Virus record (IMG/VR): IMGVR_UViG_2721755724_000001
DNA: 30,675 nt
Reading direction: 5' to 3' (one strand)
DNA from: a virus
Lineage: Duplodnaviria > Heunggongvirae > Uroviricota > Caudoviricetes
The notes beneath the pieces were generated by a model. That model had not been told where the DNA came from and searched no databases. It saw nothing but the letters and a program-made list of their open reading frames with translations. The position numbers and the translations under genes are program-made. Shown here piece after piece: positions 1,659-30,675 of this stretch (the stretch's first letter is position 1; the number at the start of each line of letters is the position of its first letter).

Positions 1659-4130
1659 TTAAGAATCAGCCTGACTCGGGATCAGTTTTTGCCAGATAAC
1701 TGAAACGTATTTTGCCTGGTAACGGGCGTCATCAAGTGCATTATGGCGCTCACCTTCGAATGGAATAGCCGTTCTGGCATCGAAGTCTATGGCTTTCCCC
1801 AGCTCAACGATTGTGCGTACATCGCGATCGTTGTAGTAACGCCACGGGCAGGGGATCCCCTGCCGTTCGTATGAACGGCGCAAAATCGTGTTGTCGAAGT
1901 TGGCTCCATTTCCCCAAACCTGAACAAAAAATTCACCGGAGTTTTCGTCGATAAATTCCCGCAATTGTAACAGTGCATCATCTAACGGGATTTCATCGGT
2001 CATAATGGCAGATTGCGCTTCGCGTGATTGCTTAAGCCACCATTTAATGGTGTTCCGATCAATGACTCCGCCAGCAGTTTCCAGATCGATAGTCTTACTA
2101 AATTCCGGTCCCATATCTCCGGTTTGCGGATCGAAAAATATTGCACCTATTGAGATGATCGGGGCATCAGGATTTTTTCCCATGGTTTCAAGGTCGATCA
2201 TTAGATGGTCACACGTCCTGCTGGTGGATGTGATTTCGTGATGACCGTTCACCTTAATTGAGTGATCTGCCGTCTCGCCAGTTTCATTATCGCTATTGTG
2301 ATGCTGATTGCCGCCAGTGTTCTCCTTGTGTGGATGTTCAGCGCCTTCCATTTCCTCCGGATCATCTTCCTGAACTTCAACCTGATATTCTTCATCGAAT
2401 GTTTCTTGATATGTTGCGTCGCCCATCACCGCGCCACAATCAGGGCAGTTGCCGCCGCCGGTCTGACCGCAGGCGGTGCAGACTTTTTCCACTTCCTGTT
2501 GCGCCACTGGTTCAGGCTGTTTCGTTTCTGGCTCGTTTTGTAACGCATTTGTGCTGTTTTGTTCCGCTTTTTGGTAGTTCCGTTCCGATTCATGCTGGTT
2601 CTGGTTCACAGAATCGCGGGTCTGGATCCCCTTAACCCATTTCGGATCATTCGGGTCACTAATCCCTTCAACAAATTCACCACGTGATGCAGCAAGCAAC
2701 TTATCGGCGTCAGGCTGGCTGATATTGGCTGCCTGCATAATTTTGTTTACTTCGTCAGCGGTAACTTTTATCGGCTCTGGTTGTTCTGAATCTTCAGCGG
2801 TATCTACATTTTGCGGTAAGCCCGTGTATGTGCCATTTTTTCGGGCAAAATATTCTTCTTTTGTGATTTCAGTGGCGCCAGCAGCCAGTGCCTTATCCAG
2901 ACCAGAAAGTTTGTTTGCGCGACCGTATTTTTCTCCGTCCTTATCTGCGAAGAGGAAATAGAACGGCCCCTCACGCTCTACAGATGGTTCAGCTTCCGGC
3001 GCGGTTTCATTTTTTGGGATATCAGATACCTCAGTTTCCACTGCATCAGTTTGTGTTTCTGATGACTGGAGAACATCAACAGTGCCCAGGTCTGTTTCTT
3101 CATTCTCAAACACGCCCTTTGTCGTCAGGTATTCGCAGATATATTTGTTCAGTGCTATGGGATCTTTGTGAATGTCGATCGGACGCTCACGGACAAGGCC
3201 AAAAATAGTCTGGCGGTCGTAGCGAAGGGCATCAGGCTGTTTGCGCATTGATGCCGAGATACGCTTCCAGTCTTCGCGGTCGTTGTCGATAACTTCTTTT
3301 TTTGCCCAGCGATGGATGCTGCCGTCAATGTTTCCGGCATCCACATCACCAGGCCAGAGAGCGTAGGCCAGTTCGTCATCCAGTGTTTTCCATGTCTGCT
3401 TGTATTCGCGATGAATGGCAGCAATGACCGGGCTGATTTTTCCTGTTGAATTTTCAGTGTACTGTTGATTGGCTCTGGCGCGGGCGAGATCAACAACAGA
3501 CGTGTATTTTCCGGTTTCCTTGCGTTCACCTTCGCGACGTTTTTTCCAGATGCGCATCTCTGCCTGAATTTCGGGCCATTTAGCACCAGGAATACATTTA
3601 TGCTTAACCCACCCAATGGCGTGCAACTTAAGCTCCGGATACATGGCGTTAACTTCTGGCATTTTCATCAACGCTTCAACGATATGTCCGTCGAATGTTG
3701 CCATGTCTTCCTGCAACAATTCCTGTGCGCTAATAACCATATCAACGGTGATGTTTTCACATGTGTCGAACTTAACCATGACAGCGTTCTGTACTTCAGG
3801 GGCCAGCTTGTCAAAAGTGACGTTCATCGGATCGGATTCAGTCTCAACCGGGACAAAAGAAGCAGACTCCTCATCCCAGCGGTTTTCCTGCATATATTCA
3901 GCATCCCATGAATCGAGGGCAGGGCGGGGTATGCCAGGTTTATCCTCGCAGACAATAAATTTATAAGCGCAGTCCTGAGCAGCCGGATAATGTTCCAGGA
4001 ACTGCCAGTGAAATTTTGCTCGAGCACGGCGTTCGTCGCCAGCTTCAATGGCTGTGGCTACAGCCACAGCGCCTTCTTCCCTTGTTGCCAGTTCGTCAGG
4101 AATAGCGGCGCAAATAAAGACTTTACTCAT
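1659..4130 (-). CDS. Large prophage exonuclease of the size usually annotated exodeoxyribonuclease VIII, with a C-terminal DnaQ-like DEDDh 3'-5' exonuclease domain
   Basis: 823-aa ORF; C-terminal about 190 aa carry Exo I (IDLETMG), Exo II (VWGNGANFDNTIL) and Exo III (HNALDDARYQA) motifs; acidic low-complexity middle region with a CxxC..CxxC cluster. Confidence 0.7.
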   Translation of the reverse strand: MSKVFICAAIPDELATREEGAVAVATAIEAGDERRARAKFHWQFLEHYPAAQDCAYKFIVCEDKPGIPRPALDSWDAEYMQENRWDEESASFVPVETESDPMNVTFDKLAPEVQNAVMVKFDTCENITVDMVISAQELLQEDMATFDGHIVEALMKMPEVNAMYPELKLHAIGWVKHKCIPGAKWPEIQAEMRIWKKRREGERKETGKYTSVVDLARARANQQYTENSTGKISPVIAAIHREYKQTWKTLDDELAYALWPGDVDAGNIDGSIHRWAKKEVIDNDREDWKRISASMRKQPDALRYDRQTIFGLVRERPIDIHKDPIALNKYICEYLTTKGVFENEETDLGTVDVLQSSETQTDAVETEVSDIPKNETAPEAEPSVEREGPFYFLFADKDGEKYGRANKLSGLDKALAAGATEITKEEYFARKNGTYTGLPQNVDTAEDSEQPEPIKVTADEVNKIMQAANISQPDADKLLAASRGEFVEGISDPNDPKWVKGIQTRDSVNQNQHESERNYQKAEQNSTNALQNEPETKQPEPVAQQEVEKVCTACGQTGGGNCPDCGAVMGDATYQETFDEEYQVEVQEDDPEEMEGAEHPHKENTGGNQHHNSDNETGETADHSIKVNGHHEITSTSRTCDHLMIDLETMGKNPDAPIISIGAIFFDPQTGDMGPEFSKTIDLETAGGVIDRNTIKWWLKQSREAQSAIMTDEIPLDDALLQLREFIDENSGEFFVQVWGNGANFDNTILRRSYERQGIPCPWRYYNDRDVRTIVELGKAIDFDARTAIPFEGERHNALDDARYQAKYVSVIWQKLIPSQADS

Positions 4131-7317: not shown

Positions 7318-7644
7318 GTGTTGATTTCAGGTCATGAGGTAATTTTAAGGAGGACTTGTGGCAAAAGTTTTTACACAGGAAGAGCGGGAAAAAATTAAAG
7401 AGCAGGTGGTCGAACTTGTGCGCCAGAGCGGTCGCGAGACATTACGACAGTTGGAAGCTAAAACAGGTGCGACAAGATATCTGATGAGCATTCTTGCCAG
7501 AGAGCTGGTTGCCAGTGGTTATGTATACAACTCCGGCTACGGGTTATTCCCGTCTGAACAGGCACGAAAGGACTGGCAAAATGCCCGCAAAAAACTCTCT
7601 AGGGCGAAGGTGAAGAAACCCGCTGTGGTTGATTGGATTTGCCC

Positions 7645-8550
7645 CTATATTTCCAGACATCTGTTATCACTTAACCCATTACAAGCCCGCTGCCGCAGAT
7701 ATTCCCGTGGCGAGCGATAACCCAGCGCACTATGCGGATGCCATTCGTTATAATGCTCGAACGCCTCTGCAAGGTTCTTTGCTGCCGTTAACCCGTCTGG
7801 TTTGGGCATGATACTGATGTAGTCACGCTTTATCGTTTTCACGAAGCTCTCTGCTATTCCGTTACTCTCCGGACTCCGCACCGCCGTGTTCTTCGGTTCA
7901 AGTCCCAACATCCGGGCGAACTGGCGTGTTTCATTAGCCCGGTAGCATGAACCATTATCCGTCAGCCACTCCACTGGAGACGACGGAAGATCGTTGCCGA
8001 AGCGGCGTTCCACCGCTCCCAGCATGACGTCCTGTACTGTTTCACTGTTGAAGCCGCCGGTAGTGACCGCCCAGTGCAGTGCCTCACGATCACAGCAGTC
8101 CAGCGCGAACGTGACACGCAGTCTCTCTCCGTTATCACAGCAGAACTCGAACCCGTCAGAGCACCATCGCTGATTGCTTTCTTTCACGGCCACTCTGCCT
8201 GTATGTGCCCGTTTCGATGGCGGTACAGCAGGTTTTCGCTCAAGCAACAGCGCATTCTGGCGCATGATCCGGTAAACACGTTTGGCATTGATCGCAGGCA
8301 TACCATCAAGTTCTGCCTGTCTGCGAAGCAGCGCCCATACCCGACGATAACCATACGTGGGCAGCTCTCCGATAACATGGTGTATACGGAGAAGCACATC
8401 CGTATCATCAGTGTGACGACTGCGGCGGCCATCCATCCAGTCATCGGTTCGTCTGAGAATGACGTGCAACTGCGCACGCGACACCCGGAGACAACGGCTG
8501 ACTAAGCTTACTCCCCATCCCCGGGCAATAAGGGCGCGTGCGCTATCCAC
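7645..8550 (-). CDS. insD: IS2 transposase OrfB (InsD), full length
   Basis: 301-aa ORF ending ...[37 protein letters not shown]; normally expressed as an InsCD frameshift fusion. Confidence 0.9.
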
Positions 8551-8873
8551 TTTTTTGCCCGTCCATATTCAACGGCTTCTTTGAGGAGTTCATTTTCCAT
8601 CGTTTTCTTGCCGAGCAGGCGCTGGAGTTCTTTAATCTGCTTCATGGCGGCAGCAAGTTCAGAGGCAGGAACAACCTGTTCTCCGGCGGCGACAGCAGTA
8701 AGACTTCCTTCCTGGTATTGCTTACGCCAGAGAAATAACTGGCTGGCTGCTACACCATGTTGCCGGGCAACGAGGGAGACCGTCATCCCCGGTTCAAAGC
8801 TCTGCTGAACAATTGCGATCTTTTCCTGTGTGGTACGCCGTCTGCGTTTCTCCGGCCCTAAGACATCAATCAT
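8508..8873 (-). CDS. insC: IS2 transposase OrfA (InsC)
   Basis: 121-aa product [26 protein letters not shown]... matches IS2 InsC. Confidence 0.9.
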
Positions 8874-9273
8874 CTGTTCTCCAATGACTAGTCTAAAAAC
8901 TAGTATTAAGACTATCACTTATTTAAGTGATATTGGTTGTCTGGAGATTCAGGGGGCCAGTCTATTGATCCGGACCTTATCTGGTCACTACCTGATGGAG
9001 AAATACGTCGCTACGACAGTCGTCTAAACATAATCTGTCGCGAGTGCCGGAAGAGCGAAGTTATGCAGCGCATACTGGCATTTTATCAGTGAAATTTTCG
9101 TTATTTATAGACGTAACTAGATTAAAGAGCATTAGTTCAGATGTGAATTGACATTTTCACGGCACAGGATTGAGCTAGCGTGGTTGTCTGCTTTGCGTCA
9201 AAAGCAGATATTACCAGATTTAGACATCTATTCCCGATAGCCCTGCTCTGATGCCACACTCTGTGCTATTTTC

Positions 9274-13087: not shown

Positions 13088-13385
13088 CTGTATGCGATAT
13101 CATCTGAAAGTGATGAGTTCCTGTATGCAGGATATTTACAATCGTAAAAACTACGCTATGATGCTCATAGTGTCAGTTTTTATAAAAATCCTGTTCACGC
13201 TAAAGAAAACATTGAGATGCAATTTAATGTTGGTAAACATACCAGCCCCAAAAGATTTTATTCAATCTGTTTTTATATGAAGATATTTCAAGTGAATATA
13301 AAGAGCATATAATATTATTATTGCACGCAGGGTGATGCTGCCAACTTACTGATTTAGTGTATGATGGTGTTTTTGAGGTGCTCCA

Positions 13386-13661
13386 GTGGCTTCTGTTTCT
13401 ATCAGCTGTCCCTCCTGTTCAGCTACTGACGGGGTGGTGCGTAACGGCAAAAGCACTGCCGGACATCAGCGCTATCTCTGCTCTCACTGCCGTAAAACAT
13501 GGCAACTGCAGTTCACTTACACCGCTTCTCAACCCGGTACGCACCAGAAAATCATTGATATGGCCATGAATGGCGTTGGATGCCGGGCAACTGCCCGCAT
13601 TATGGGCGTTGGCCTCAACACGATTTTACGTCACTTAAAAAACTCAGGCCGCAGTCGGTAA
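13386..13661 (+). CDS. insA: IS1 InsA
   Basis: 91-aa product [37 protein letters not shown]... matches IS1 InsA. Confidence 0.95.
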
Positions 13662-14084
13662 CCTCGCGCATACAACCGGGCAGCGATGTGATTGTCTGCG
13701 CTGAAATGGACGAACAGTGGGGCTACGTAGGTGCTAAATCACGTCAGCGCTGGCTGTTTTACGCGTATGACAGGATACGGAGGACGGTTGTGGCGCACGT
13801 CTTCGGTGAACGCACTCTGGCCACACTGGAGCGTCTTCTGAGCCTGCTGTCGGCCCTTTGACGTGGTGATATGGATGACGGATGGCTGGCCGCTGTATGA
13901 ATCCCGCCTGAAGGGAAAGCTGCACGTAATCAGCAAGCGATATACGCAGCGAATTGAGCGGCATAACCTGAATCTGAGGCAGCACCTGGCACGGCTGGGA
14001 CGGAAGTCGCTGTCGTTCTCAAAATCGGTGGAGCTGCATGACAAAGTCATCGGGCATTATCTGAACATAAAACACTATCAATAA
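13580..14084 (+). pseudogene. insB: IS1 insB, frameshifted
   Basis: InsB-homologous sequence is split into two frames around 13855-13865 (...LSLLSAL* then [15 protein letters not shown]...), consistent with a 1-bp insertion relative to canonical IS1. Confidence 0.75.
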
Positions 14085-14271
14085 GTTGGAGTCATTACCT
14101 GCACGCAGCTATTATAATATAACAGATTAGTTTAATGATTTGTTTTTTGTGAGTTAAACACATGGTTTTATAGTTGTGATGCAATGAGATTTTCCTTATT
14201 GTTGAACTGGCGAATATTGATTTTCCACCTATACTTACCTGGTGTAACCCCAATGATATCAGGTGGATAAT

Positions 14272-18100: not shown

Positions 18101-18257
18101 CTTAGTGTCTAGTCGATGGATACTCACATATTACGGTAACATTATGAAAAAAATAATAGTTTTTTTAACTCTGAACCAGCAATGGTAGTGCCAGTGATGA
18201 CCGGAGTTAACACCATCATGCGTGAATTGATCCTACCCACGTAATATGGACACAGGC

Positions 18258-19124
18258 CTAAGCGAGGTTCTTGTTTTCAAATTGTTCCGGACTGAGGCCG
18301 CCACACCAACTGTGCCGCCGCCACCGATTGTAATCACATTCGATATAATTAAACACCGTTGCCCGCATTATTTCCCGGCTGATAAAGTGTTCTCCATGGA
18401 TACATTCCACTTTCAGCGAATGAAAGAAGCTTTCCACGCAGGCATTATCGTAGCAGCAACCTTTTGCGCTCATACTTCCACGCAGATTATGCCGCTTCAG
18501 TTGCGCCTGATAATCTGCTGAACAGTACTGGCCTCCACGGTCCGTGTGAACGATAACGTTCCGGGGCCTCTTACGCCGCCACAGCGCCATCTGCAGGGCA
18601 TCGCAGGCCAGTTGCGCCGTCATGCGTGGCGACATTGACCAGCCAATAACGGCACGTGACCACAGGTCAATGACCACTGCCAGATACAGCCAGCCTTCAT
18701 CTGTACGTAAGTACGTGATGTCTCCTGCCCACTTCTGGTTCGGGCCACTGGCGTAAAAATCCTGCTCCAACAGATTTTCTGACACAGGCAGGCCGTGTGC
18801 GCGGTAGCTGACCGGGCTGAACTTCCGGGAGGCCTTTGCCCTCAGTCCCTGACGGCGCAGGCTTGCCGCCACGGTTTTTACGTTAAAGGGGTAACCCTGA
18901 GCACGCAGTTCATCCGTCAGGCGTGGGGCACCGTAACGCTGTTTTGACCGGGTAAAAGCCGCGAGGACAACGCTGTCGCAGTGTTGGCGGAACTGCTGAC
19001 GCGTGCTTATCCTTGTCCGCCGCTGACACCACGTATACCAGCCGCTGCGGGCCACCCGGAGCACGCGGCACATTGCTTTGATGCTGAACTCAGCCTGATG
19101 TTTTTCAATAAAGACATACTTCAT
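18258..19124 (-). CDS. insF: IS3 transposase OrfB (InsF)
   Basis: 288-aa ORF matching IS3 InsF (DDE catalytic region); normally expressed as an OrfAB frameshift fusion. Confidence 0.9.
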
Positions 19125-19420
19125 TTCAGGCGCTTCGCGAAGTATGTCGCGGCCTTTTGGAGGATAGCCAGCTCTTCATCCCGTTCTGCCAGCTGGCGTT
19201 TGAGACGTGCAATCTCGGTAGACATCTCCAGTTCACGTTCAGAAGACGTCTGCTGATTTTGCTGTTTACTGCGCCAGTTGTAGAGTTGTGATTCATACAG
19301 GCTGAGTTCACGGGCTGCGGCAGTAACACCGATGCGTTCAGCAAGCTTCAGGGCTTCACTGCGAAATTCAGGCGAATGCTGTTTACGGGGTTTTTTACTG
19401 GTTGATACTGTTTTTGTCAT
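19121..19420 (-). CDS. insE: IS3 transposase OrfA (InsE)
   Basis: 99-aa product [31 protein letters not shown]... matches IS3 InsE. Confidence 0.9.
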
Positions 19421-19806
19421 GTGAGTCACCTCTGACTGAGAGTTTACTCACTTAGCCGCGTGTCCACTATTGCTGGGTAAGATCAAATATCCAAATGGCG
19501 AAACAACACACCTCACTGTAATGGCTGCAGGGTTTCCATCTCTGACCGGAGATCATAAAGTCATTTATGTAGCAGCGGATCGACATGTAACTTCAGAAGA
19601 AATTCTGGAAGCAGCAATGAGACTCTTGAATTGATTTGATTCTAATGCATTGATAATAAATGATAATCATCTTTATCTGTTTGTGTGAAATTTAGACCGT
19701 CGTATGTTGATTATTGCGATGTTTCATCTTATCTTTTATACGTTTGCTCCATATAATTGACACTACTGTGTACCAGGAAAGTCATAACAGACTAAAAGAG
19801 GAAATG

Positions 19807-21031: not shown

Positions 21032-21588
21032 ATGGAGTTGCTTATGTCAAATGTGAGCGGGATCGGTGATGCTTATTACTGGAGTGTTTTTAAAATCGCC
21101 GAGGCCTTTGGGCTTCACCGGGACACAGTAAAAAAACGGCTCCTCGCGGCCAACACTCCTGTGGCTGCGACTGTCAGGGGGAACCCCGTTACCGGTTTGT
21201 CGCCTTAACCGATTACGACCGTTTTCCGGAGAATATCGACAGCGAGGGTGATGGTTTCTCCCAGGCCTCAAAACGTACCACCACATTTATGTCCGCCGGG
21301 ATGACTCTGGTGGAGAGCTCGCCGGGACGTGACATCTGCGACAGCAAATGGCGACGTAAGTCGCCTCATGAAGCGCCACCGACGACTGGTATTCTTTCCC
21401 TTTACAATCGTGGTGACCGCCGCCGCTGGTACTGGCCATGTCCGCACTGCGGTGAATATTTTCAGCCAGCCATGGATGCCATGACCGGCTACCGTAATGA
21501 ACCGGATCCCTTTAAAGCCAGTGATGCGCTGTATGCCGGTATGGAACGGGCAGACGCTGACGTTCGTGCAGGACCGACCATCAGATAA
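21032..21588 (+). pseudogene. Remnants of the terminase region: short small-subunit-like N-terminal ORF and an internal large-subunit (GpA-family-like) fragment
   Basis: 59-codon ORF (MELLMSNVSGIGDAYYWSVFKIAEAFGLHRDTVKKRL...) then a frame containing WYWPCPHCGEYFQP, similar to the CPHCGE motif of lambda gpA; no ATPase domain is present. Confidence 0.4.
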
Positions 21589-23968
21589 GGTGTGGACCTA
21601 TAACCGCAGTAATGTGGTGATGCCGGATGATGGCGCGCCGTTCCGCTACAGCTTCAGCGCCCTGAAGGACCGCCATAATGCCGTTGAGGTGAACTGGATT
21701 GACCCGAACAACGGCTGGGAGACGGCGACAGAGCTTGTTGAAGATACGCAGGCCATTGCCCGTTACGGTCGTAATGTCACGAAGATGGATGCCTTTGGCT
21801 GTACCAGCCGGGGGCAGGCACACCGCGCCGGGCTGTGGCTGATTAAAACGGAACTGCTGGAGACGCAGACCGTGGATTTCAGCGTGGGTGCTGAAGGGCT
21901 TCGCCATGTACCGGGCGATGTCATTGAAATCTGCGATGATGACTATGCCGGTATCAGCACCGGCGGGCGCGTGCTGGCGGTAAACAGCCAGACCCGGACG
22001 CTGACGCTCGACCGTGAAATCACGCTGCCATCTTCCGGCACCACGCTGATAAGCCTGGTTGACGGGCAGGGGAGTCCGGTCAGCGTGGAGGTTCAGTCCG
22101 TCACCGACGGCGTGAAGGTAAAAGTGAGCCGTGTTCCTGACGGTGTTGCTGAATACAGCGTATGGGGGCTGAAGCTGCCGACGCTGCGCCAGCGACTGTT
22201 CCGCTGCGTGAGTATCCGTGAGAACGACGACGGCACGTATGCCATCACCGCCGTGCAGCATGTGCCGGAAAAAGAGGCCATCGTGGATAACGGGGCGCAC
22301 TTTGACGGCGACCAGAGCGGCACGGTGAATGGTGTCACGCCGCCAGCGGTGCAGCACCTGACTGCCGAAGTCACCGCAGACAGCGGGGAGTATCAGGTAC
22401 TGGCCCGCTGGGACACGCCGAAGGTGGTGAAGGGGGTGAGCTTTATGCTTCGCCTGACCGTGGCAGCGGACGACGGCAGTGAGCGGCTGGTCAGCACGGC
22501 CCGGACGACAGAAACCACATACCGCTTCACGCAACTGGCGCTGGGACGGTACACGCTGACAGTCCGGGCGGTAAATGCGTGGGGACAGCAGGGCGATCCG
22601 GCGTCGGTATCGTTCCGGATTGCCGCACCGGTAGCACCGTCGCGGATTGAGCTGACGCCGGGCTATTTTCAGATAACTGCCACGCCGCATCTTGCGGTTT
22701 ATGATCCGACGGTACAGTTTGAGTTCTGGTTCTCGGAAACGCGGATTACCGATATCAGGCAGGTTGAAACCACAGCCCGCTACCTTGGTGCGGGGCTGTA
22801 CTGGATAGCCGCCAGTATCAATATCAAACCGGGCCATGATTATTACTTTTATATCCGCAGTGTGAACACCGTTGGCAAATCGGCATTCGTGGAGGCTGTT
22901 GGTCAGCCGAGTGATGACGCATCCGGCTATCTGGATTTTTTCAAAGGCGAGATAGGGAAAACCCATCTGGCTCAGGAGCTGTGGACGCAGATTGATAACG
23001 GTCAGCTTGCGCCTGACCTGGCTGAAATCAGGACATCCATTACGGATGTCAGCAATGAAATCACACAGACCGTCAATAAGAAACTGGAAGACCAGAGTGC
23101 AGCGATTCAGCAGATACAGAAGGTTCAGGTTGATACAAATAATAACCTGAACAGCATGTGGGCCGTGAAACTGCAGCAGATGCAGGACGGACGCCTTTAT
23201 ATTGCGGGTATCGGTGCCGGTATTGAGAATACGCCAGCAGGAATGCAGAGTCAGGTGCTGCTGGCGGCAGACAGGATTGCGATGATTAATCCTGCGAATG
23301 GCAACACAAAGCCGATGTTTGTTGGTCAGGGTGATCAGATATTCATGAACGACGTGTTCCTGAAACGCCTGACGGCTCCCACCATTACCAGCGGCGGTAA
23401 TCCTCCTGCATTTTCCCTTACACCGGACGGGCGACTGACGGCGAAAAATGCGGATATCAGTGGCAGTGTGAATGCGAACGCCGGGACGCTCAACAATGTC
23501 ACGATAAATGAAAACTGTCGGGTTCTGGGAAAACTGTCTGCGAACCAGATTGAAGGCGATCTCGTTAAAACAGTGGGCAAAGCTTTCCCCCGGGACTCCC
23601 GTGCACCGGAGCGGTGGCCATCAGGGACCATTACCGTCAGGGTTTATGACGATCAGCCGTTTGACCGGCAGATTGTTATTCCCACGGTGGCGTTTCGTGA
23701 CGCTAAACATGAGCGGGAGAATAACGATATTTATTCGTCATGCCGCCTGATAGTGAAGAAAAACGGTGCTGAAATTTATAACCGTACCGCGCTGGATAAT
23801 ACGCTGGTTTATACAGGTGTTATTGATATGCCTGCCGGTCACGGTCACATGACGCTGGAGTTTTCGGTATCAGCGTGGCTGGTAAATGACTGGTATCCCA
23901 CAGCCAGTATCAGTGATTTGCTGGTTGTGGTGATGAAGAAATCCACAGCAGGTATCAGTATCAGCTGA
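21551..23968 (+). pseudogene. Host specificity protein J (central tail fibre), C-terminal roughly two-thirds only
   Basis: Near-identity over hundreds of residues to lambda J from ...[29 protein letters not shown]... to the C-terminus; the apparent N-terminus of the 823-aa ORF is out-of-frame terminase-region sequence. Left boundary approximate (about 30 bp). Confidence 0.8.
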
Positions 23969-24035: not shown

Positions 24036-24635
24036 ATGCGTAAAGTTTGTGCAGCCATTTTGTCCGCAGCCATCTGTCTGGCCGTATCCGGTGCGCCTGC
24101 ATGGGCGTCTGAGCAGCAGGCCACACTGAGCGCAGGGTATCTTCATGCCTCGACGAACGTTCCCGGTAGTGATGATCTGAACGGGATTAACGTGAAATAC
24201 CGTTATGAGTTTACGGACACGCTGGGGCTGATTACGTCATTCAGTTATGCCAACGCTGAAGATGAGCAAAAAACGCATTACAGCGATACCCGCTGGCATG
24301 AGGATTCCGTGCGTAACCGCTGGTTCAGCGTGATGGCGGGGCAGTCTGTGCGCGTGAATGAATGGTTCAGCGCGTATGCGATGGCGGGTGTGGCTTACAG
24401 CCGTGTGTCGACTTTCTCCGGGGATTATCTCCGCGTAACTGACAACAAGGGGAAAACGCACGATGTGCTGACCGGAAGTGATGACGGTCGCCACAGCAAC
24501 ACGTCTCTGGCGTGGGGGGCTGGCGTGCAGTTTAACCCGACCGAATCCGTGGCCATTGATATTGCTTATGAAGGTTCCGGCAGTGGTGACTGGCGCACTG
24601 ACGGTTTCATCGTGGGTGTCGGTTATAAATTCTGA
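24036..24635 (+). CDS. lom: Lom-family outer-membrane protein (Ail/Lom/PagC beta-barrel)
   Basis: 199-aa ORF with signal peptide and an Ail/Lom-type beta-barrel pattern ending ...GFIVGVGYKF; position after J as in lambda. Confidence 0.9.
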   Translation: MRKVCAAILSAAICLAVSGAPAWASEQQATLSAGYLHASTNVPGSDDLNGINVKYRYEFTDTLGLITSFSYANAEDEQKTHYSDTRWHEDSVRNRWFSVMAGQSVRVNEWFSAYAMAGVAYSRVSTFSGDYLRVTDNKGKTHDVLTGSDDGRHSNTSLAWGAGVQFNPTESVAIDIAYEGSGSGDWRTDGFIVGVGYKF

Positions 24636-24662
24636 TTAGCCAGGTAACACAGTGTTATGACA

Positions 24663-24689
24663 GCCCGCCGGTTCAGGCGGGTTTTTTTG
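24663..24689 (+). terminator. Rho-independent terminator after lom
   Basis: CCCGCC-GGTTCA-GGCGGG hairpin followed by a 7-T run. Confidence 0.6.
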
Positions 24690-25029
24690 TGGGGGGAATA
24701 TGGCAGTACGGATTTCAGGTGTACTGAAAGATGGCGCAGGTAAGCCGATACAAAACTGCACCATTCAGCTAAAGGCCAGGCGCAACAGCACCACGGTGGT
24801 GGTGAACACAGTGGCCTCAGAAAACCCGGATGAAGCCGGGCGTTACAGCATGGACGTTGAGTACGGTCAGTACAGCGTTATTCTGTTGGTGGAAGGCTTC
24901 CCGCCATCGCATGCCGGGACCATCACCGTGTATGAAGACTCACAACCGGGTACGCTGAATGATTTTCTCGGTGCCATGACGGAGGATGATGTCCGTCCGG
25001 AGGCACTGCGCCGCTTTGAACTGATGGTG

Positions 25030-25700
25030 GAAGAGGTGGCGCGTAACGCGTCCGCAGTGGCACAGAACACGGCAGCCGCGAAGAAGTCAGCCAGTGATGC
25101 CCGCACATCAGCCCGTGAGGCGGCAACCCATGCGACTGATGCTGCGGACTCCGCACGCGCAGCCAGCACGTCAGCCGGACAGGCCGCGTCGTCGGCTCAG
25201 TCAGCGTCTTCCAGCGCAGGAACGGCATCAACAAAGGCTACTGAAGCATCAAAAAGTGCTGCCGCTGCAGAGTCTTCAAAAAGCGCGGCAGCCACCAGTG
25301 CCGGTGCAGCGAAAACGTCAGAAACGAATGCCGCAGCATCACAAAAATCTGCGGCCACTTCTGCATCCACCGCGACCACGAAAGCGTCAGAAGCTGCCAC
25401 CTCAGCCCGGGATGCGTCGGCTTCAAAAGTGGCGGCAAAATCATCAGAAACGAGCGCAGCCTCGAGCGCCGGCAGTGCAGCTTCCTCGGCAACGGCGGCA
25501 GGAAATTCCGCGAAGGCCGCAAAAACGTCTGAGATGAATGCGGATAACAGCGCACAGGCGGCAGCAGACTCACAAACTGCATCGGCAAATTCCGCGACAG
25601 CAGCCAAAAAATCAGAAACCAACGCGAAAAATAGTGAGTCAGCAGCAAAGGTCAGCGAAACCAACGCTAAAGCGTCAGAGAACAAGGCGAAAGAATATCT
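25030..25700 (+). repeat. Ala/Ser/Thr/Lys-rich low-complexity repeat region within stf
   Basis: About 200 codons of short degenerate SA..A..S/KSA repeats, as in lambda Stf; generates long spurious ORFs on other frames and strands. Confidence 0.7.
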
Positions 25701-27612
25701 CGACAAGGTCGGGGGACTCGTCAGCCCGATGACGCAATACGATTGGCCCGTTGTTACTGGTAATGAGTCTTTTTACATAAAGATCGCGAAACTTTCCGAT
25801 CCCGGAAGCAACAATTGCCATGTAACGCTAATGGTTACTAACGGCGGTGACTACGGCTCCCCTTACGGAAACATTGACTTTATCGAGATCTCGGCGCGCG
25901 GTCTGCCTTCTTCGCTTACTGCTGATAATGTATCTCGTTACCTGAGTATACGCCGTTTAGGGCCAACCGGGCTAATCAATAGCATGCAAATGCGTTACGG
26001 CCTGGTTAAAGATGATGGCTTTATTGAGGTTTGGGCCTTCCAGCGTGCATTTATCAACGGCGCAAAGGTTGCGGTACTGGCGCAGACGGCACGCACGGAA
26101 TTATACATTCCAGACGGATTTGTTAAGCAAACCGCCGCGCCTTCTGGATATGTTGAAAGCCCCGTTGTAAGGATTTACGACCAGTTAAACAAGCCGACTA
26201 AAGCAGATTTGGGTCTTTCTAATGCTATGCTTACAGGCGCTTTCGGTCTTGGCGGTAGCGGGATATCAACAAACGGCAAGATGAGCGATGTAGAGATCTT
26301 AAAAGCTCTGCGTGACAAAGGTGGTCATTTCTGGCGCGGTGATAAGCCGACCGGAAGCACGGCGACCATTTATAGCCACGGTTCTGGTATATTCTCGCGG
26401 TGCGGCGATACGTGGTCAGCGATCAATATCGACTACTCAACCGCGAAGATTAAGATCTATGCCGGCAACGATGCCCGGCTTAACAACGGGACTTTTAGCA
26501 TCAATGAGCTATACGGCTCGGCAAACAAGCCGTCGAAATCGGATGTTGGACTTGGCAACGTAACGAACGATGCGCAGGTAAAAAAAACCGGCGATACAAT
26601 GACCTGTGACTTGACAATCAAAAAAGGTACACCGTCAGTCTTCCTGCGGGCAGACAGTGGAGTCACCGCTTTGCGGTTTTATACTGGCGATAACACAGAG
26701 CGCGGCATAATCTATGCTGGTCCTAACACTGATTCGCTTGGCGAAGTTCGCATCAGGGCAAAGACAGCAGGGGGGACATCAGGAGGGGATCTTGTTGTTC
26801 GTCACGACGGGAGGGTTGAAGTCCGTGATCTCACAGTAGCGTATAAAATTAAAAGCAGAACGATTGAGATTGCAAATACCGACACTGACTCATCGGCAAC
26901 TACGCTCAGCATCTATGGAGTACAGCACACGCCGTTGGTTTTAACGCGTTCTGGTTCTTCTGAAAATGTGTCCATTGGGTTTAAGTTAGACAACATGAAC
27001 CCAAAGTATCTTGGAATTGATACTAATGGGGATCTGGCTTTTGGTGAGAGTCCTGATCAGAAACAAAACAGCAAATTGATCACGCAAGCGAAACTCGACA
27101 AGGGATTAACGATTGGTGGTCAACTGGCTTTCAAAGGTACGACAGCGTTTTCAGCCGTTGCTACGTTCAGTGCCGGGATAGCAGGAGCCATCGAGCCGGA
27201 AAACATTGACGGCCAGACGGTTAATCTTAACAACCTGACCATCATCAAGTCAGATGCCGGGGCAGTTAAATACTATATTTGTCCATCCTCTGCAGGTGGT
27301 GCAAATATTACCAATAAGCCTGACGGCATAGCCGGTAACTTTTTGCTCCGTGTAGAGTCGACTCGTAAGGTTAGGGATTCAGATTATGCGAACATGCAAA
27401 CGCTGATTAACAGCGACACAAAACGTATATACGTTCGCTTTGTTGTTAATGGAAACTGGACAGCGTGGAGTCAGGTTGTTGTTTCCGGATGGAATCAGGA
27501 TATAACTGTCAGGTCGTTAACTAGACTGGCCCCCTGAATCTCCAGACAACCAATATCACTTAAATAAGTGATAGTCTTAATACTAGTTTTTAGACTAGTC
27601 ATTGGAGAACAG

Positions 27613-27978
27613 ATGATTGATGTCTTAGGGCCGGAGAAACGCAGACGGCGTACCACACAGGAAAAGATCGCAATTGTTCAGCAGAGCTTTGAACCGGGGA
27701 TGACGGTCTCCCTCGTTGCCCGGCAACATGGTGTAGCAGCCAGCCAGTTATTTCTCTGGCGTAAGCAATACCAGGAAGGAAGTCTTACTGCTGTCGCCGC
27801 CGGAGAACAGGTTGTTCCTGCCTCTGAACTTGCTGCCGCCATGAAGCAGATTAAAGAACTCCAGCGCCTGCTCGGCAAGAAAACGATGGAAAATGAACTC
27901 CTCAAAGAAGCCGTTGAATATGGACGGGCAAAAAAGTGGATAGCGCACGCGCCCTTATTGCCCGGGGATGGGGAGTAA
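27613..27978 (+). CDS. insC: IS2 transposase OrfA (InsC), copy 2
   Basis: Identical 121-aa product to copy 1. Confidence 0.9.
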
Positions 27979-28757
27979 GCTTAGTCAGCCGTTGTCTCCG
28001 GGTGTCGCGTGCGCAGTTGCACGTCATTCTCAGACGAACCGATGACTGGATGGATGGCCGCCGCAGTCGTCACACTGATGATACGGATGTGCTTCTCCGT
28101 ATACACCATGTTATCGGAGAGCTGCCCACGTATGGTTATCGTCGGGTATGGGCGCTGCTTCGCAGACAGGCAGAACTTGATGGTATGCCTGCGATCAATG
28201 CCAAACGTGTTTACCGGATCATGCGCCAGAATGCGCTGTTGCTTGAGCGAAAACCTGCTGTACCGCCATCGAAACGGGCACATACAGGCAGAGTGGCCGT
28301 GAAAGAAAGCAATCAGCGATGGTGCTCTGACGGGTTCGAGTTCTGCTGTGATAACGGAGAGAGACTGCGTGTCACGTTCGCGCTGGACTGCTGTGATCGT
28401 GAGGCACTGCACTGGGCGGTCACTACCGGCGGCTTCAACAGTGAAACAGTACAGGACGTCATGCTGGGAGCGGTGGAACGCCGCTTCGGCAACGATCTTC
28501 CGTCGTCTCCAGTGGAGTGGCTGACGGATAATGGTTCATGCTACCGGGCTAATGAAACACGCCAGTTCGCCCGGATGTTGGGACTTGAACCGAAGAACAC
28601 GGCGGTGCGGAGTCCGGAGAGTAACGGAATAGCAGAGAGCTTCGTGAAAACGATAAAGCGTGACTACATCAGTATCATGCCCAAACCAGACGGGTTAACG
28701 GCAGCAAAGAACCTTGCAGAGGCGTTCGAGCATTATAACGAATGGCAATCCGCATAG
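27936..28757 (+). pseudogene. insD: IS2 insD, copy 2, frameshifted near the 3' end
   Basis: Copy 2 reads GAATGGCAATCCGCA where copy 1 reads GAATGGCATCCGCA (one extra A), giving ...EHYNEWQSA* (273 aa) in place of the 301-aa product. Confidence 0.8.
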
Positions 28758-29813
28758 TGCGCTGGGTTATCGCTCGCCACGGGAATATCTGCGGCAGCGG
28801 GCTTGTAATGGGTTAAGTGATAACAGATGTCTGGAAATATAGGGGCAAATCCATTAACCACATCTAGTCCGGTAAAATCTGGCGGAGGGCGAATTGATGT
28901 CCTTGGAAGCACGTCAGACTATAGCAAAATGGATTGCTTTGTACGTGGGTTTGATAGCACCGGTAATTCTCTCGCGTGGGCGTTGGGTTCATCAGCCGGC
29001 GTAAGTAAGATGCTGTCGCTAAAAAATTTCTTTAGCGGAGCTGAGATACTGTTAAATGGTAATGACGGCACGGTTCAACTCAAAACAGGTGCTGTTAACG
29101 GGGCTACAGCGCAGGCGCTCACTATCAACAGGAATGAGGTTAACTCAACTGTTGATTTAACCCTTACAAAACAATCAGGGACTGGCAATCGTTTTGTTTT
29201 ACAGAACTCAGGTAATGCAGAACTACCGTTTTCTGTCAGGGTGTGGGGTTCCAGTACTCGACAAAACGTTTTTGAGGTTGGCACGTCTGCTGCGTATCTG
29301 TTTTATGCGCAAAAAACGTCAGCAGGCCAGTTGTTTGATGTAAATGGCGCTATTAATTGCACAACGCTGAATCAGTCATCAGACCGCGACCTTAAAGACG
29401 ATATTCTCGTTATCAGCGACGCGACGAAAGCAATCCGTAAAATGAACGGATACACCTACACGCTCAGGGAAAACGGGATGCCTTATGCTGGCGTTATTGC
29501 ACAGGAAGTAATGGAGGCGATACCAGAAGCTGTGGGATCGTTTACTCATTATGGTGAAGAGTTGCAAGGTCCGACCGTTGACGGCAACGAGCTACGCGAA
29601 GAAACGCGCTATCTTAATGTTGACTACGCCGCCGTGACGGGCTTACTTGTTCAGTTCGCCCGTGAAACAGATGATCGCGTTACCGCGCTGGAAGAGGAAA
29701 ACACAACGCTACGTCAAAATCTGGCAACAGCAGACACCCGGATCAGCACTCTGGAAAATCAGGTAAGCGAACTGGTTGCACTTGTCCGGCAGTTAACAGG
29801 AAGCGAACATTGA

Positions 29814-30084: not shown

Positions 30085-30675
30085 TTATATGTCAGGTGTC
30101 TGAAGTTTTGCTTTGGCTCTTAAAATGGTTTGCCGCGAGGTTTTGAATTCCCGGGCAATGGCACTTATACTTACACCTGACTTAATTCGTTCGAATACCA
30201 CCTGTTTCTGTTCTTCATTTAACACAGGTGGTCGACCAAAACGTTTCCCTGCGCCGCGGGCTCTTACTATCCCGGAATGAGTGCGTTCAAGTAAAAGGTC
30301 TCGTTCAAATTCAGCGACTGCTGAAATTACGTGCATCATCATTTTTCCTGTTGGACTGGTCAGGTCAATGCCCCCCAATGCTAAGCAATGCACTCTGATA
30401 CCTGTTTCGGTCAGTTGTTCCACTGTTTTCCTGATATCCATTGCATTACAACCAAGGCGATCCAGTTTTGTCACAATCAATTGATCACCACATTTCAGGC
30501 GAGCAAGCAACCGGTTAAAACCAGGACGCTCACTGGTTGCTGCTGAGCCGCTAATGTGTTCTTCGATTATTTGCTGAGGTTTGATTTTAAAACCTGCACT
30601 TTCGATTTCCCGGCGTTGATTTTCGGTGGTCTGATCCAGCGTTGATATCCGACAGTAAGCAAAAATTCGAGACAT
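30085..30675 (-). CDS. pin: Pin-family DNA invertase (serine recombinase), PinQ/PinR-like
   Basis: 196-aa [38 protein letters not shown]... with catalytic-Ser N-terminal domain and C-terminal helix-turn-helix; start codon is the last three bases of the window. Confidence 0.9.

Follow-up and report, generated by a model that had tools for sequence, protein, structure and literature searches.

IS2 Interrupts stf, a Lambda-Type Side Tail Fibre Gene of Cryptic Prophage Qin, Ahead of Its Distal Tip and S74-Type Chaperone

Introduction

The side tail fibre of phage lambda, Stf, depends on a separate protein, Tfa. In T5 pb1, Lys1269 activates the scissile Ser1264, the Thr1263-Ser1264 bond is cut once the trimer has folded correctly, and a 133-residue chaperone is released after folding (PMC4690869). 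As for cryptic prophages, StfE2 of e14, an Stf chimera, is reported to block the adsorption of T2, and the invertase PinQ is reported to work in trans on the P segment of e14 and so to keep T2 from adsorbing (PMC12529663, published in 2025). We describe here a DNA stretch of 30,675 nucleotides (IMG/VR virus record IMGVR_UViG_2721755724_000001; its whole length is hereafter called the window), in which a gene with a lambda Stf-like beginning and an S74-type end is split by the insertion sequence (IS) IS2. With a probability of roughly 0.9, this region is the stf gene of the Qin cryptic prophage of Escherichia coli, inactivated by a simple IS2 insertion, a reading built on the structure of the gene, its domains, a conserved Ser/Lys dyad, the anatomy of the insertion, an intact allele, and a defective context. 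All the components belong to known kinds, and the locus is a case of ordinary prophage decay.

An Intact stf Gene Is Recovered by Removing IS2

The upstream open reading frame (ORF) of the split gene (24700..27537) starts with the ATG at 24700 and runs for 945 codons, reading from stf into IS2 (VRSLT-RLAP, then a stop); its last four residues, RLAP, and its stop are encoded by IS2. When IS2 and one TTAAC copy are removed, 24700..27521 is joined to 28859..29813 and the result is a gene of 3777 nt, in frame and devoid of internal stops, that encodes 1258 residues. This reconstruction is exact because the target-site duplication marks the inserted bases. An uninterrupted stf of 3777 nt is found at the same locus in E. 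coli HS (NC_009800.1 1657550-1661326, WP_000290867.1), and the two genes differ by 4 nt and by 2 residues (C636G and S824I). The alignments between the window and E. coli HS to the left and to the right of IS2 overlap by exactly 5 bp, TTAAC, and the empty site in E. coli HS, which reads ...GTCGTTAACCACATC..., contains a single TTAAC. The gene is also intact in strain ES2, which carries IS2 elsewhere in Qin. The IS2-disrupted stf is already catalogued: for strain EC190486, RefSeq lists the same locus as a pair of pseudogene fragments on either side of IS2.

The inserted element, which starts with TAGACTGGCCCC at 27522 and ends with GGGGCAAATCCA at 28853, has the features of IS2 (IS3 family): a length of about 1.3 kb, inverted repeats, two transposase frames, and a 5-bp duplication. 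Pfam searches with its proteins returned HTH_Tnp_1 for InsC and rve for InsD, and the element at the same site in a near-identical genome is named "IS3-like element IS2 family transposase" in RefSeq. A further IS2 lies in the window (copy 1; the one in stf is copy 2), and the two are identical but for one extra base in copy 2. This base, an A at 28747 (GAATGGCAATCCGC), is found neither in copy 1 nor in the IS2 present at the same site in EC190486, and owing to it the InsD frame of copy 2 stops early, after YNEWQSA. The extra A may be a genuine frameshift that inactivates InsD or else a sequencing error in a homopolymer. The two copies are inverted relative to each other and 18.6 kb apart, each with its own matching duplication (TTGAT for copy 1, TTAAC for copy 2); therefore, the intervening segment has not been inverted by recombination between them.

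IS2 entered codon 941, which lies 174 codons upstream of Ser1115, the first residue of the S74 domain. The insertion falls exactly at a conserved junction, between VRSLT and TSxPVKSGGG, for which the homologue consensus reads V(R/K)SLT followed by T(S/T)xPVKSGGG. In the homologue designated P0001, the same tip and chaperone module follows a domain named as a knob, whereas in P0004 and P0007 it follows a quite different domain. IS2 thus separates a complete and exchangeable module, made of the tip (residues 942-1114) and the chaperone (residues 1115-1258), from the rest of the protein. An earlier note on this DNA had placed IS2 copy 2 within the coding sequence of a cleanly reconstructable fibre gene, for which an intact homologue matching across the insertion site was to be expected, and the 1258-codon gene of E. 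coli HS with its single TTAAC bears this out. The note had also located the split between the fibre body and the chaperone. IS2 does lie upstream of the chaperone, but the downstream piece comprises the distal tip as well, and the boundary is that between two fibre modules. Likewise, the fibre body is indeed physically uncoupled from the chaperone, as the note had it, but nothing that still worked would have been disabled, Qin being already defunct for want of head and tail genes (see below).

The insertion also produced a mechanical ORF of 328 codons, whose reading frame passes from the right end of IS2 into the module (table 1). A search for sigma-70-like promoters on the + strand between 23900 and 30143 found none, and no ribosome-binding site is evident in the sequence before the ATG of this ORF.

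Table 1. Positions of stf, Its Parts, the Insertion Sequences, and the Neighbouring Genes in the Window
Feature	Position	Strand	Evidence or remark
stf 5' part: codons 1-940 and two bases of codon 941	24700..27521	+	In-frame join; 99.9% identity to the intact E. coli HS gene
stf 3' part: last base of codon 941 to stop (residues 941-1258), distal tip module and chaperone	28859..29813	+	100% identity to E. coli HS
N-terminal attachment domain, lambda Stf type (residues 1-134)	24700..25101	+	PF08400 phage_tail_N
Ala/Ser-rich heptad-repeat shaft (residues 115-345)	25042..25734	+	Composition and periodicity
Distal tip of mature fibre (residues 942-1114)	28860..29378	+	No Pfam family; homologous to phage fibre ends
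C-terminal putative intramolecular chaperone (residues 1115-1258)	29379..29810	+	S74 domain 1115-1166, then long helix/coiled coil
Target-site duplication, left copy, TTAAC	27517..27521		Single TTAAC in E. coli HS
Target-site duplication, right copy, TTAAC	28854..28858
IS2 copy 2 (1332 bp)	27522..28853	+ (same orientation as stf)	Imperfect terminal inverted repeats (pair I1); 5-bp target-site duplication TTAAC
IS2 copy 1 (1331 bp)	7634..8964	-	Own duplication TTGAT; interrupts a DUF977 gene in RefSeq
Mechanical ORF made by the insertion (328 aa)	28827..29813	+	ATG in IS2 right end, about 10 residues encoded by IS2 and the duplication, then in frame into tip and chaperone
IS1-like element and IS3 element	13331..14099 and 18215..19487		Within Qin
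Truncated tail tip gene J (C-terminal 823 aa only)	21497..23968	+	Pfam J domains; RefSeq "phage tail tip protein, missing N-terminus"
lom (Ail/Lom outer membrane protein)	24036..24635	+	PF06316, E 6e-126; directly upstream of stf
tfa remnant, last 41 codons	29862..29987	+	Pfam Caudo_TAP positions 90-130 of 131, E 1.1e-18; RefSeq "tail fiber assembly protein, missing N-terminus"
pinQ, serine invertase of Qin	30085..30675	-	Pfam Resolvase and HTH_7; RefSeq pinQ, WP_000086522.1

Domains of the Reconstructed Fibre

The earlier note had described a lambda Stf-like N-terminus followed by a long Ala/Ser-rich repeat, and both features were recovered in the reconstructed protein. The Pfam profile phage_tail_N (PF08400) covers residues 1-134 over 134 of its 134 positions (E-value 2e-72), and residues 1-94 are nearly identical to a 94-residue chain named "Tail fiber protein" (9e7m_Ta; E-value 1e-51) of the PDB entry 9e7m, which is cited in the Ur-lambda structure paper (PMC12617516). 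The shaft that follows is composed of 34% Ala, 21% Ser, and 10% Thr; its self-identity reaches 0.41 at lags of 7, 14, and 28 residues, against about 0.16 at other lags, with peaks at 7, 14, 21, 28, and 35. Tandem Repeats Finder, run on the gene, returned no DNA tandem repeat under this region, and the Ala/Ser repeat exists only at the protein level, as heptads. The shaft is weakly similar to that of T7 gp17.

Past the shaft, profile searches were less informative. The Pfam scans of residues 801-940 and 942-1114 returned no family, nor did an NCBIfam scan of the 1258-residue protein, and the "pyocin knob" label used in RefSeq is thus unconfirmed. In PHROGs, the protein falls into existing tail fibre families (phrog_6578, E-value reported as 0). 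The distal tip is homologous to the fibre ends of phages mEp460, Ayreon, FritzHoffmann, and slur09, and the homologue profile has a match to a fibre domain of T4 gp34 immediately before Ser1115 (E-value 1e-08). From its position, the tip is probably the receptor-binding end of the fibre.

The chaperone part, for which the note had predicted an S74 domain with Ser185 and Lys190 of the downstream ORF in an SDRDLK motif, is supported by several lines of evidence, and the numbering of the note is right. Peptidase_S74 (PF13884) was detected at residues 1115-1166 of the whole protein (E-value 9.2e-12, 45.5 bits for a cut-off of 22) and scored somewhat higher when the last 144 residues were searched alone (E-value 4.5e-13, 49.7 bits), with weak coiled-coil matches after it. 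The first residue of SDRDLK is number 1115 in the reconstructed protein and number 185 in ORF 28827..29813; Ser1115 corresponds to the codon 29379-29381 and Lys1120 to the codon 29394-29396. Both the Ser and the Lys of the motif are invariant in 37 homologues, which are 48-88% identical to the first sequence of the alignment, and the segment SSDRDLKDDI aligns to SSDRRIKKDI of the solved chain 6f45_A. The domain sits at the extreme C-terminus (1115-1258 of 1258).

We also built an AlphaFold2 monomer model of the homologue P0001 (453 residues), which spans the insertion junction, from the 37-sequence alignment. Its overall confidence is poor (mean predicted local distance difference test score [pLDDT] of 55, predicted template modelling score [pTM] of 0.27), as would be expected if the fibre is an intertwined trimer, and it was not used to set domain boundaries. 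A helix is predicted at the end of P0001, with block-mean pLDDT values of about 65-87, in a monomer model that is, as a whole, of low confidence. A Foldseek search of this model against the PDB gave no match at an E-value of 0.001 or below; T4 gp34 and the R2 pyocin fibre appeared weakly, and the search was discarded as uninformative.

The Qin Prophage and the Neighbourhood of stf

The window aligns at 99-100% to RefSeq regions with dicB, ydfD, essQ, rrrQ, rzpQ, cspI, gnsB, pinQ, and ydfK, then ydfJ. By this alignment, the host element is the Qin cryptic prophage, with its ydfK-ydfJ side just past the end of the window. The gene order around the fibre (J fragment, lom, stf) fits the placement of Stf in a lambdoid late operon. 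The J fragment is fused upstream to terminase fragments, in a stretch reaching back to about 21190, and the same fusion is found in E. coli HS. The head and tail module is wholly absent from Qin, both in the window and in E. coli HS, where stf is intact, and a single deletion would appear to have removed the whole head/tail morphogenesis region. From the lack of head and tail genes and the terminase-J fusion, it follows that no Qin virion could have mounted the fibre, even before IS2 arrived. The IS2 hit would then be a further step of prophage decay and not the loss of a working fibre; that it was neutral is what this context suggests.

Qin carries four IS insertions in all in the window, two of IS2, one of IS1, and one of IS3. 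The closest RefSeq genome, that of EC190486, has no IS at the equivalents of 13331..14099 and 18215..19487, and its IS3 sits elsewhere in Qin. By sequence comparison, the source strain appears to be a distinct and IS-active relative, identical to none of the complete genomes examined.

Between lom and stf, a terminator-like hairpin with a T run lies at 24662-24683, and a terminator is annotated at the equivalent position in mEp460. With such a terminator, stf would need antiterminated late transcription, which in the window is interrupted by IS1 and IS3. Downstream of stf, a complete tfa gene is absent and only the remnant of 41 codons is found. The same tfa scar lies 3' of a 98% identical stf in an apparently intact prophage of strain CH459. 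This scar would be the trace of an ancient exchange, in which the S74 module displaced a fibre end that relied on Tfa, and it seems to travel with that module.

The pinQ gene is intact, without a crossover site or an invertible segment nearby. The Pin crossover sequence TTGGTTTGGGAGAAGG is absent from the window with up to 3 mismatches allowed, AAACCNNGGTTT has no site in or near stf, and no significant inverted repeats other than the IS2 ends surround the end of the fibre gene. An invertible segment served by pinQ, of the kind found in Mu (G) or e14 (P), was considered and rejected for lack of crossover sites.

Relatives of the Gene and Other IS2 Events

The last 955 nt of stf are found in 654 of 5426 complete E. 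coli genomes (at least 80% coverage). Among phages, the last 317 residues match the side tail fibres of mEp460 (AFM76057.1, 1202 residues) at 93.7% identity and of Ayreon at 83.9% identity, and FritzHoffmann, slur09, and others carry weaker relatives. The genes of mEp460 run J-lom-stf with no tfa after the fibre gene, which fits a fibre with its own chaperone. RefSeq names relatives "prophage tail fiber N-terminal domain and S74 family ..." or "pyocin knob domain-containing S74 family peptidase," and protein databases use the names "S74 family peptidase" and "chaperone of endosialidase." A 98.3% identical stf is carried by strain CH459, in a prophage that has a full-length J and adjoins sitABCD. 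The ratio of nonsynonymous to synonymous substitution rates (dN/dS) between the reconstructed gene and the CH459 copy, a comparison with a copy in an intact-looking prophage and not among Qin copies, is 0.18, and stf had therefore not degenerated before IS2 arrived.

When the 5426 genomes were searched with the interrupted gene (stf::IS2), at least 80% of the query was covered in one place in four of them. We rejected a single IS2 site common to all four, as stf is intact in ES2 and the insertion in strain 2017-03-3CC is independent; the TTAAC-IS2 junction occurs in only two of the four, EC190486 and strain 127. In strain 127 (L007 3823..5326), the junction leads into an IS2 cut to 131 bp and joined to nt 2957 of stf, and a second, full IS2 with the duplication CTGAG lies at about nt 3010 of stf, an arrangement that points to a secondary IS2 transposition and a deletion in the same lineage. 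In 2017-03-3CC (L003 6195..7525), the 94% identical stf of a different prophage, one with a full-length J, took up an IS2 with the duplication CTACC at about nt 3195; this site is about 370 bp further downstream. All three IS2 insertions are oriented as stf, too few events to be evidence for a hotspot.

Discussion

The ancestral fibre would have been a protein of 1258 residues in which a lambda Stf N-terminus docked on the tail tip and was followed by the heptad Ala/Ser shaft, a variable middle with a knob-like region, a distal tip of 174 residues, and finally an S74-type intramolecular chaperone of 144 residues. If it worked like its counterparts in T5 pb1 and the K1F endosialidase, this chaperone would have trimerised, templated the folding of the distal fibre, and then cut itself off just before Ser1115, activated by Lys1120. 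Because of such a self-chaperoning end, no separate Tfa chaperone gene would be needed, and only the 41-codon scar of one is left. IS2 entered the TTAAC at codon 941, at the junction of exchangeable fibre modules, cutting the fibre body to 941 native residues plus RLAP and leaving the tip and chaperone without the start of stf and without a detected promoter. Judging from T5 pb1 and the K1F endosialidase, a fibre deprived of its chaperone is expected to misfold. By then the prophage was already without head and tail genes and had only half of J left, and the insertion was therefore probably one more neutral step of decay.

It is by analogy that we infer self-cleavage and the dependence of folding on the chaperone, and from its position that we infer receptor binding by the tip. 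Several points weigh against this account. Self-cleavage and trimerisation are transposed from other proteins, while the monomer model is poor (mean pLDDT 55) and the fold search uninformative. Beyond the Ser/Lys pair, the Arg and Asp that act as folding sensor in T5 pb1 were not identified in the stf sequence. Finally, fibre genes of cryptic prophages can have host functions, of which the StfE2 block mentioned above is an example, so that the loss of an intact Qin stf might not have been entirely neutral.

Another idea is that the intact Qin stf was still useful in spite of the dead prophage, either as a source of fibre modules that incoming lambdoid phages could take up by recombination or as a fibre provided in trans to co-resident prophages, and that IS2 destroyed a selected function. 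In its favour, the Qin elements of E. coli HS and ES2, themselves devoid of head and tail genes, still contain an intact stf, its dN/dS is low, and near-identical copies exist in phages and in prophages with a full-length J; moreover, the acquisition of DNA from defective prophages by temperate phages is the subject of a paper (PMC3945230). On the other hand, the low dN/dS may come from a recent arrival of the gene from functional phages and not from selection acting on it within Qin, the CH459 copy used to compute it is no Qin copy, and the four IS insertions of Qin in the window suggest relaxed selection on the whole element. We hold this idea to be unlikely, if worth bearing in mind, and retain the simple inactivation of a gene in a decaying prophage.

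Alternatively, the insertion might have created a new functional unit, ORF 28827..29813, whose product, if expressed, would be a free, self-trimerising, and self-processing tip that masks a surface receptor and protects the cell against the phages that depend on it. This ORF does exist in frame and covers the complete module from its natural junction; besides, C-terminal fragments of T5 pb1 that include the chaperone fold alone, and the fragment, once processed, competitively inhibits infection (PMC4690869), which, together with the reported block of T2 adsorption by a cryptic-prophage Stf chimera (PMC12529663), gives the idea some precedent. Yet neither a promoter-like site nor an evident ribosome-binding site precedes it in the region searched, the further IS2-driven deletion within the tip-chaperone fragment of strain 127 argues against selection to keep it, and the insertion is rare, with its junction in two of the 5426 genomes. 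A gain of function of this sort is very improbable, and the bolder version, in which the IS2-made ORF would be a self-folding, self-cleaving receptor mask and an accidental counterpart of the e14 StfE2 block, is harder still to credit. As for an assembly artefact, in which a repeat-collapsing assembler would have misplaced IS2, its likelihood is negligible: the window does hold two near-identical IS2 copies and their one-base difference at 28747 could be a sequencing error, but the 5-bp duplication around IS2 is perfect and the same junction recurs in the complete RefSeq genomes of EC190486 and strain 127, which are independent of each other.

The inactivation of stf by IS2 in Qin thus has little import beyond annotation, where the two fragments and the element are best entered under a single IS-disrupted pseudogene, the stf of Qin. 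The locus nevertheless makes a textbook example of the exchange of fibre-end modules, an S74 tip having taken the place of a Tfa-dependent one and left a tfa scar, and it also exemplifies the erosion of a cryptic prophage by IS elements and the exact reconstruction of a gene through a target-site duplication. The tip module, with its intact alleles and phage relatives, could serve the engineering of lambda-type fibres, as no separate chaperone gene would be needed.

The locus can be compared with several known systems. The element itself conforms to IS2 of the IS3 family in length (1331 and 1332 bp), inverted repeats, InsC and InsD frames, and 5-bp duplication, and departs from it by the extra A of copy 2. 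The Qin stf of E. coli HS shares the locus, the length of 3777 nt, and the same tfa scar and pinQ after the gene, and differs by having no IS2 at codon 941. With mEp460 and Ayreon, the gene has in common the last 317 residues and an N-terminus of the same type, the first 974 nt showing 92.7% nucleotide identity, as well as, for mEp460, the J-lom-stf order, whereas the DNA coding for the central part of the protein is unrelated and these are sequenced phages, not a cryptic prophage. The resemblance to T5 pb1 lies in the Ser-x4-Lys spacing (Ser1264/Lys1269 vs. Ser1115/Lys1120) at the start of a C-terminal chaperone, about 130-145 residues long, after which a helical coiled coil is predicted in the stf protein, but the chains of the T5 pb1 structure match neither the stf protein nor the homologue profile at E-values up to 1; the receptor-binding tip therefore differs from that of T5 pb1. 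Lastly, phage lambda with its Stf and Tfa pair resembles the Qin gene in the N-terminal 94 residues (chain 9e7m_Ta) and in the position of stf after J and lom, whereas the Qin fibre has a distal S74 chaperone of its own and retains only 41 codons of tfa.

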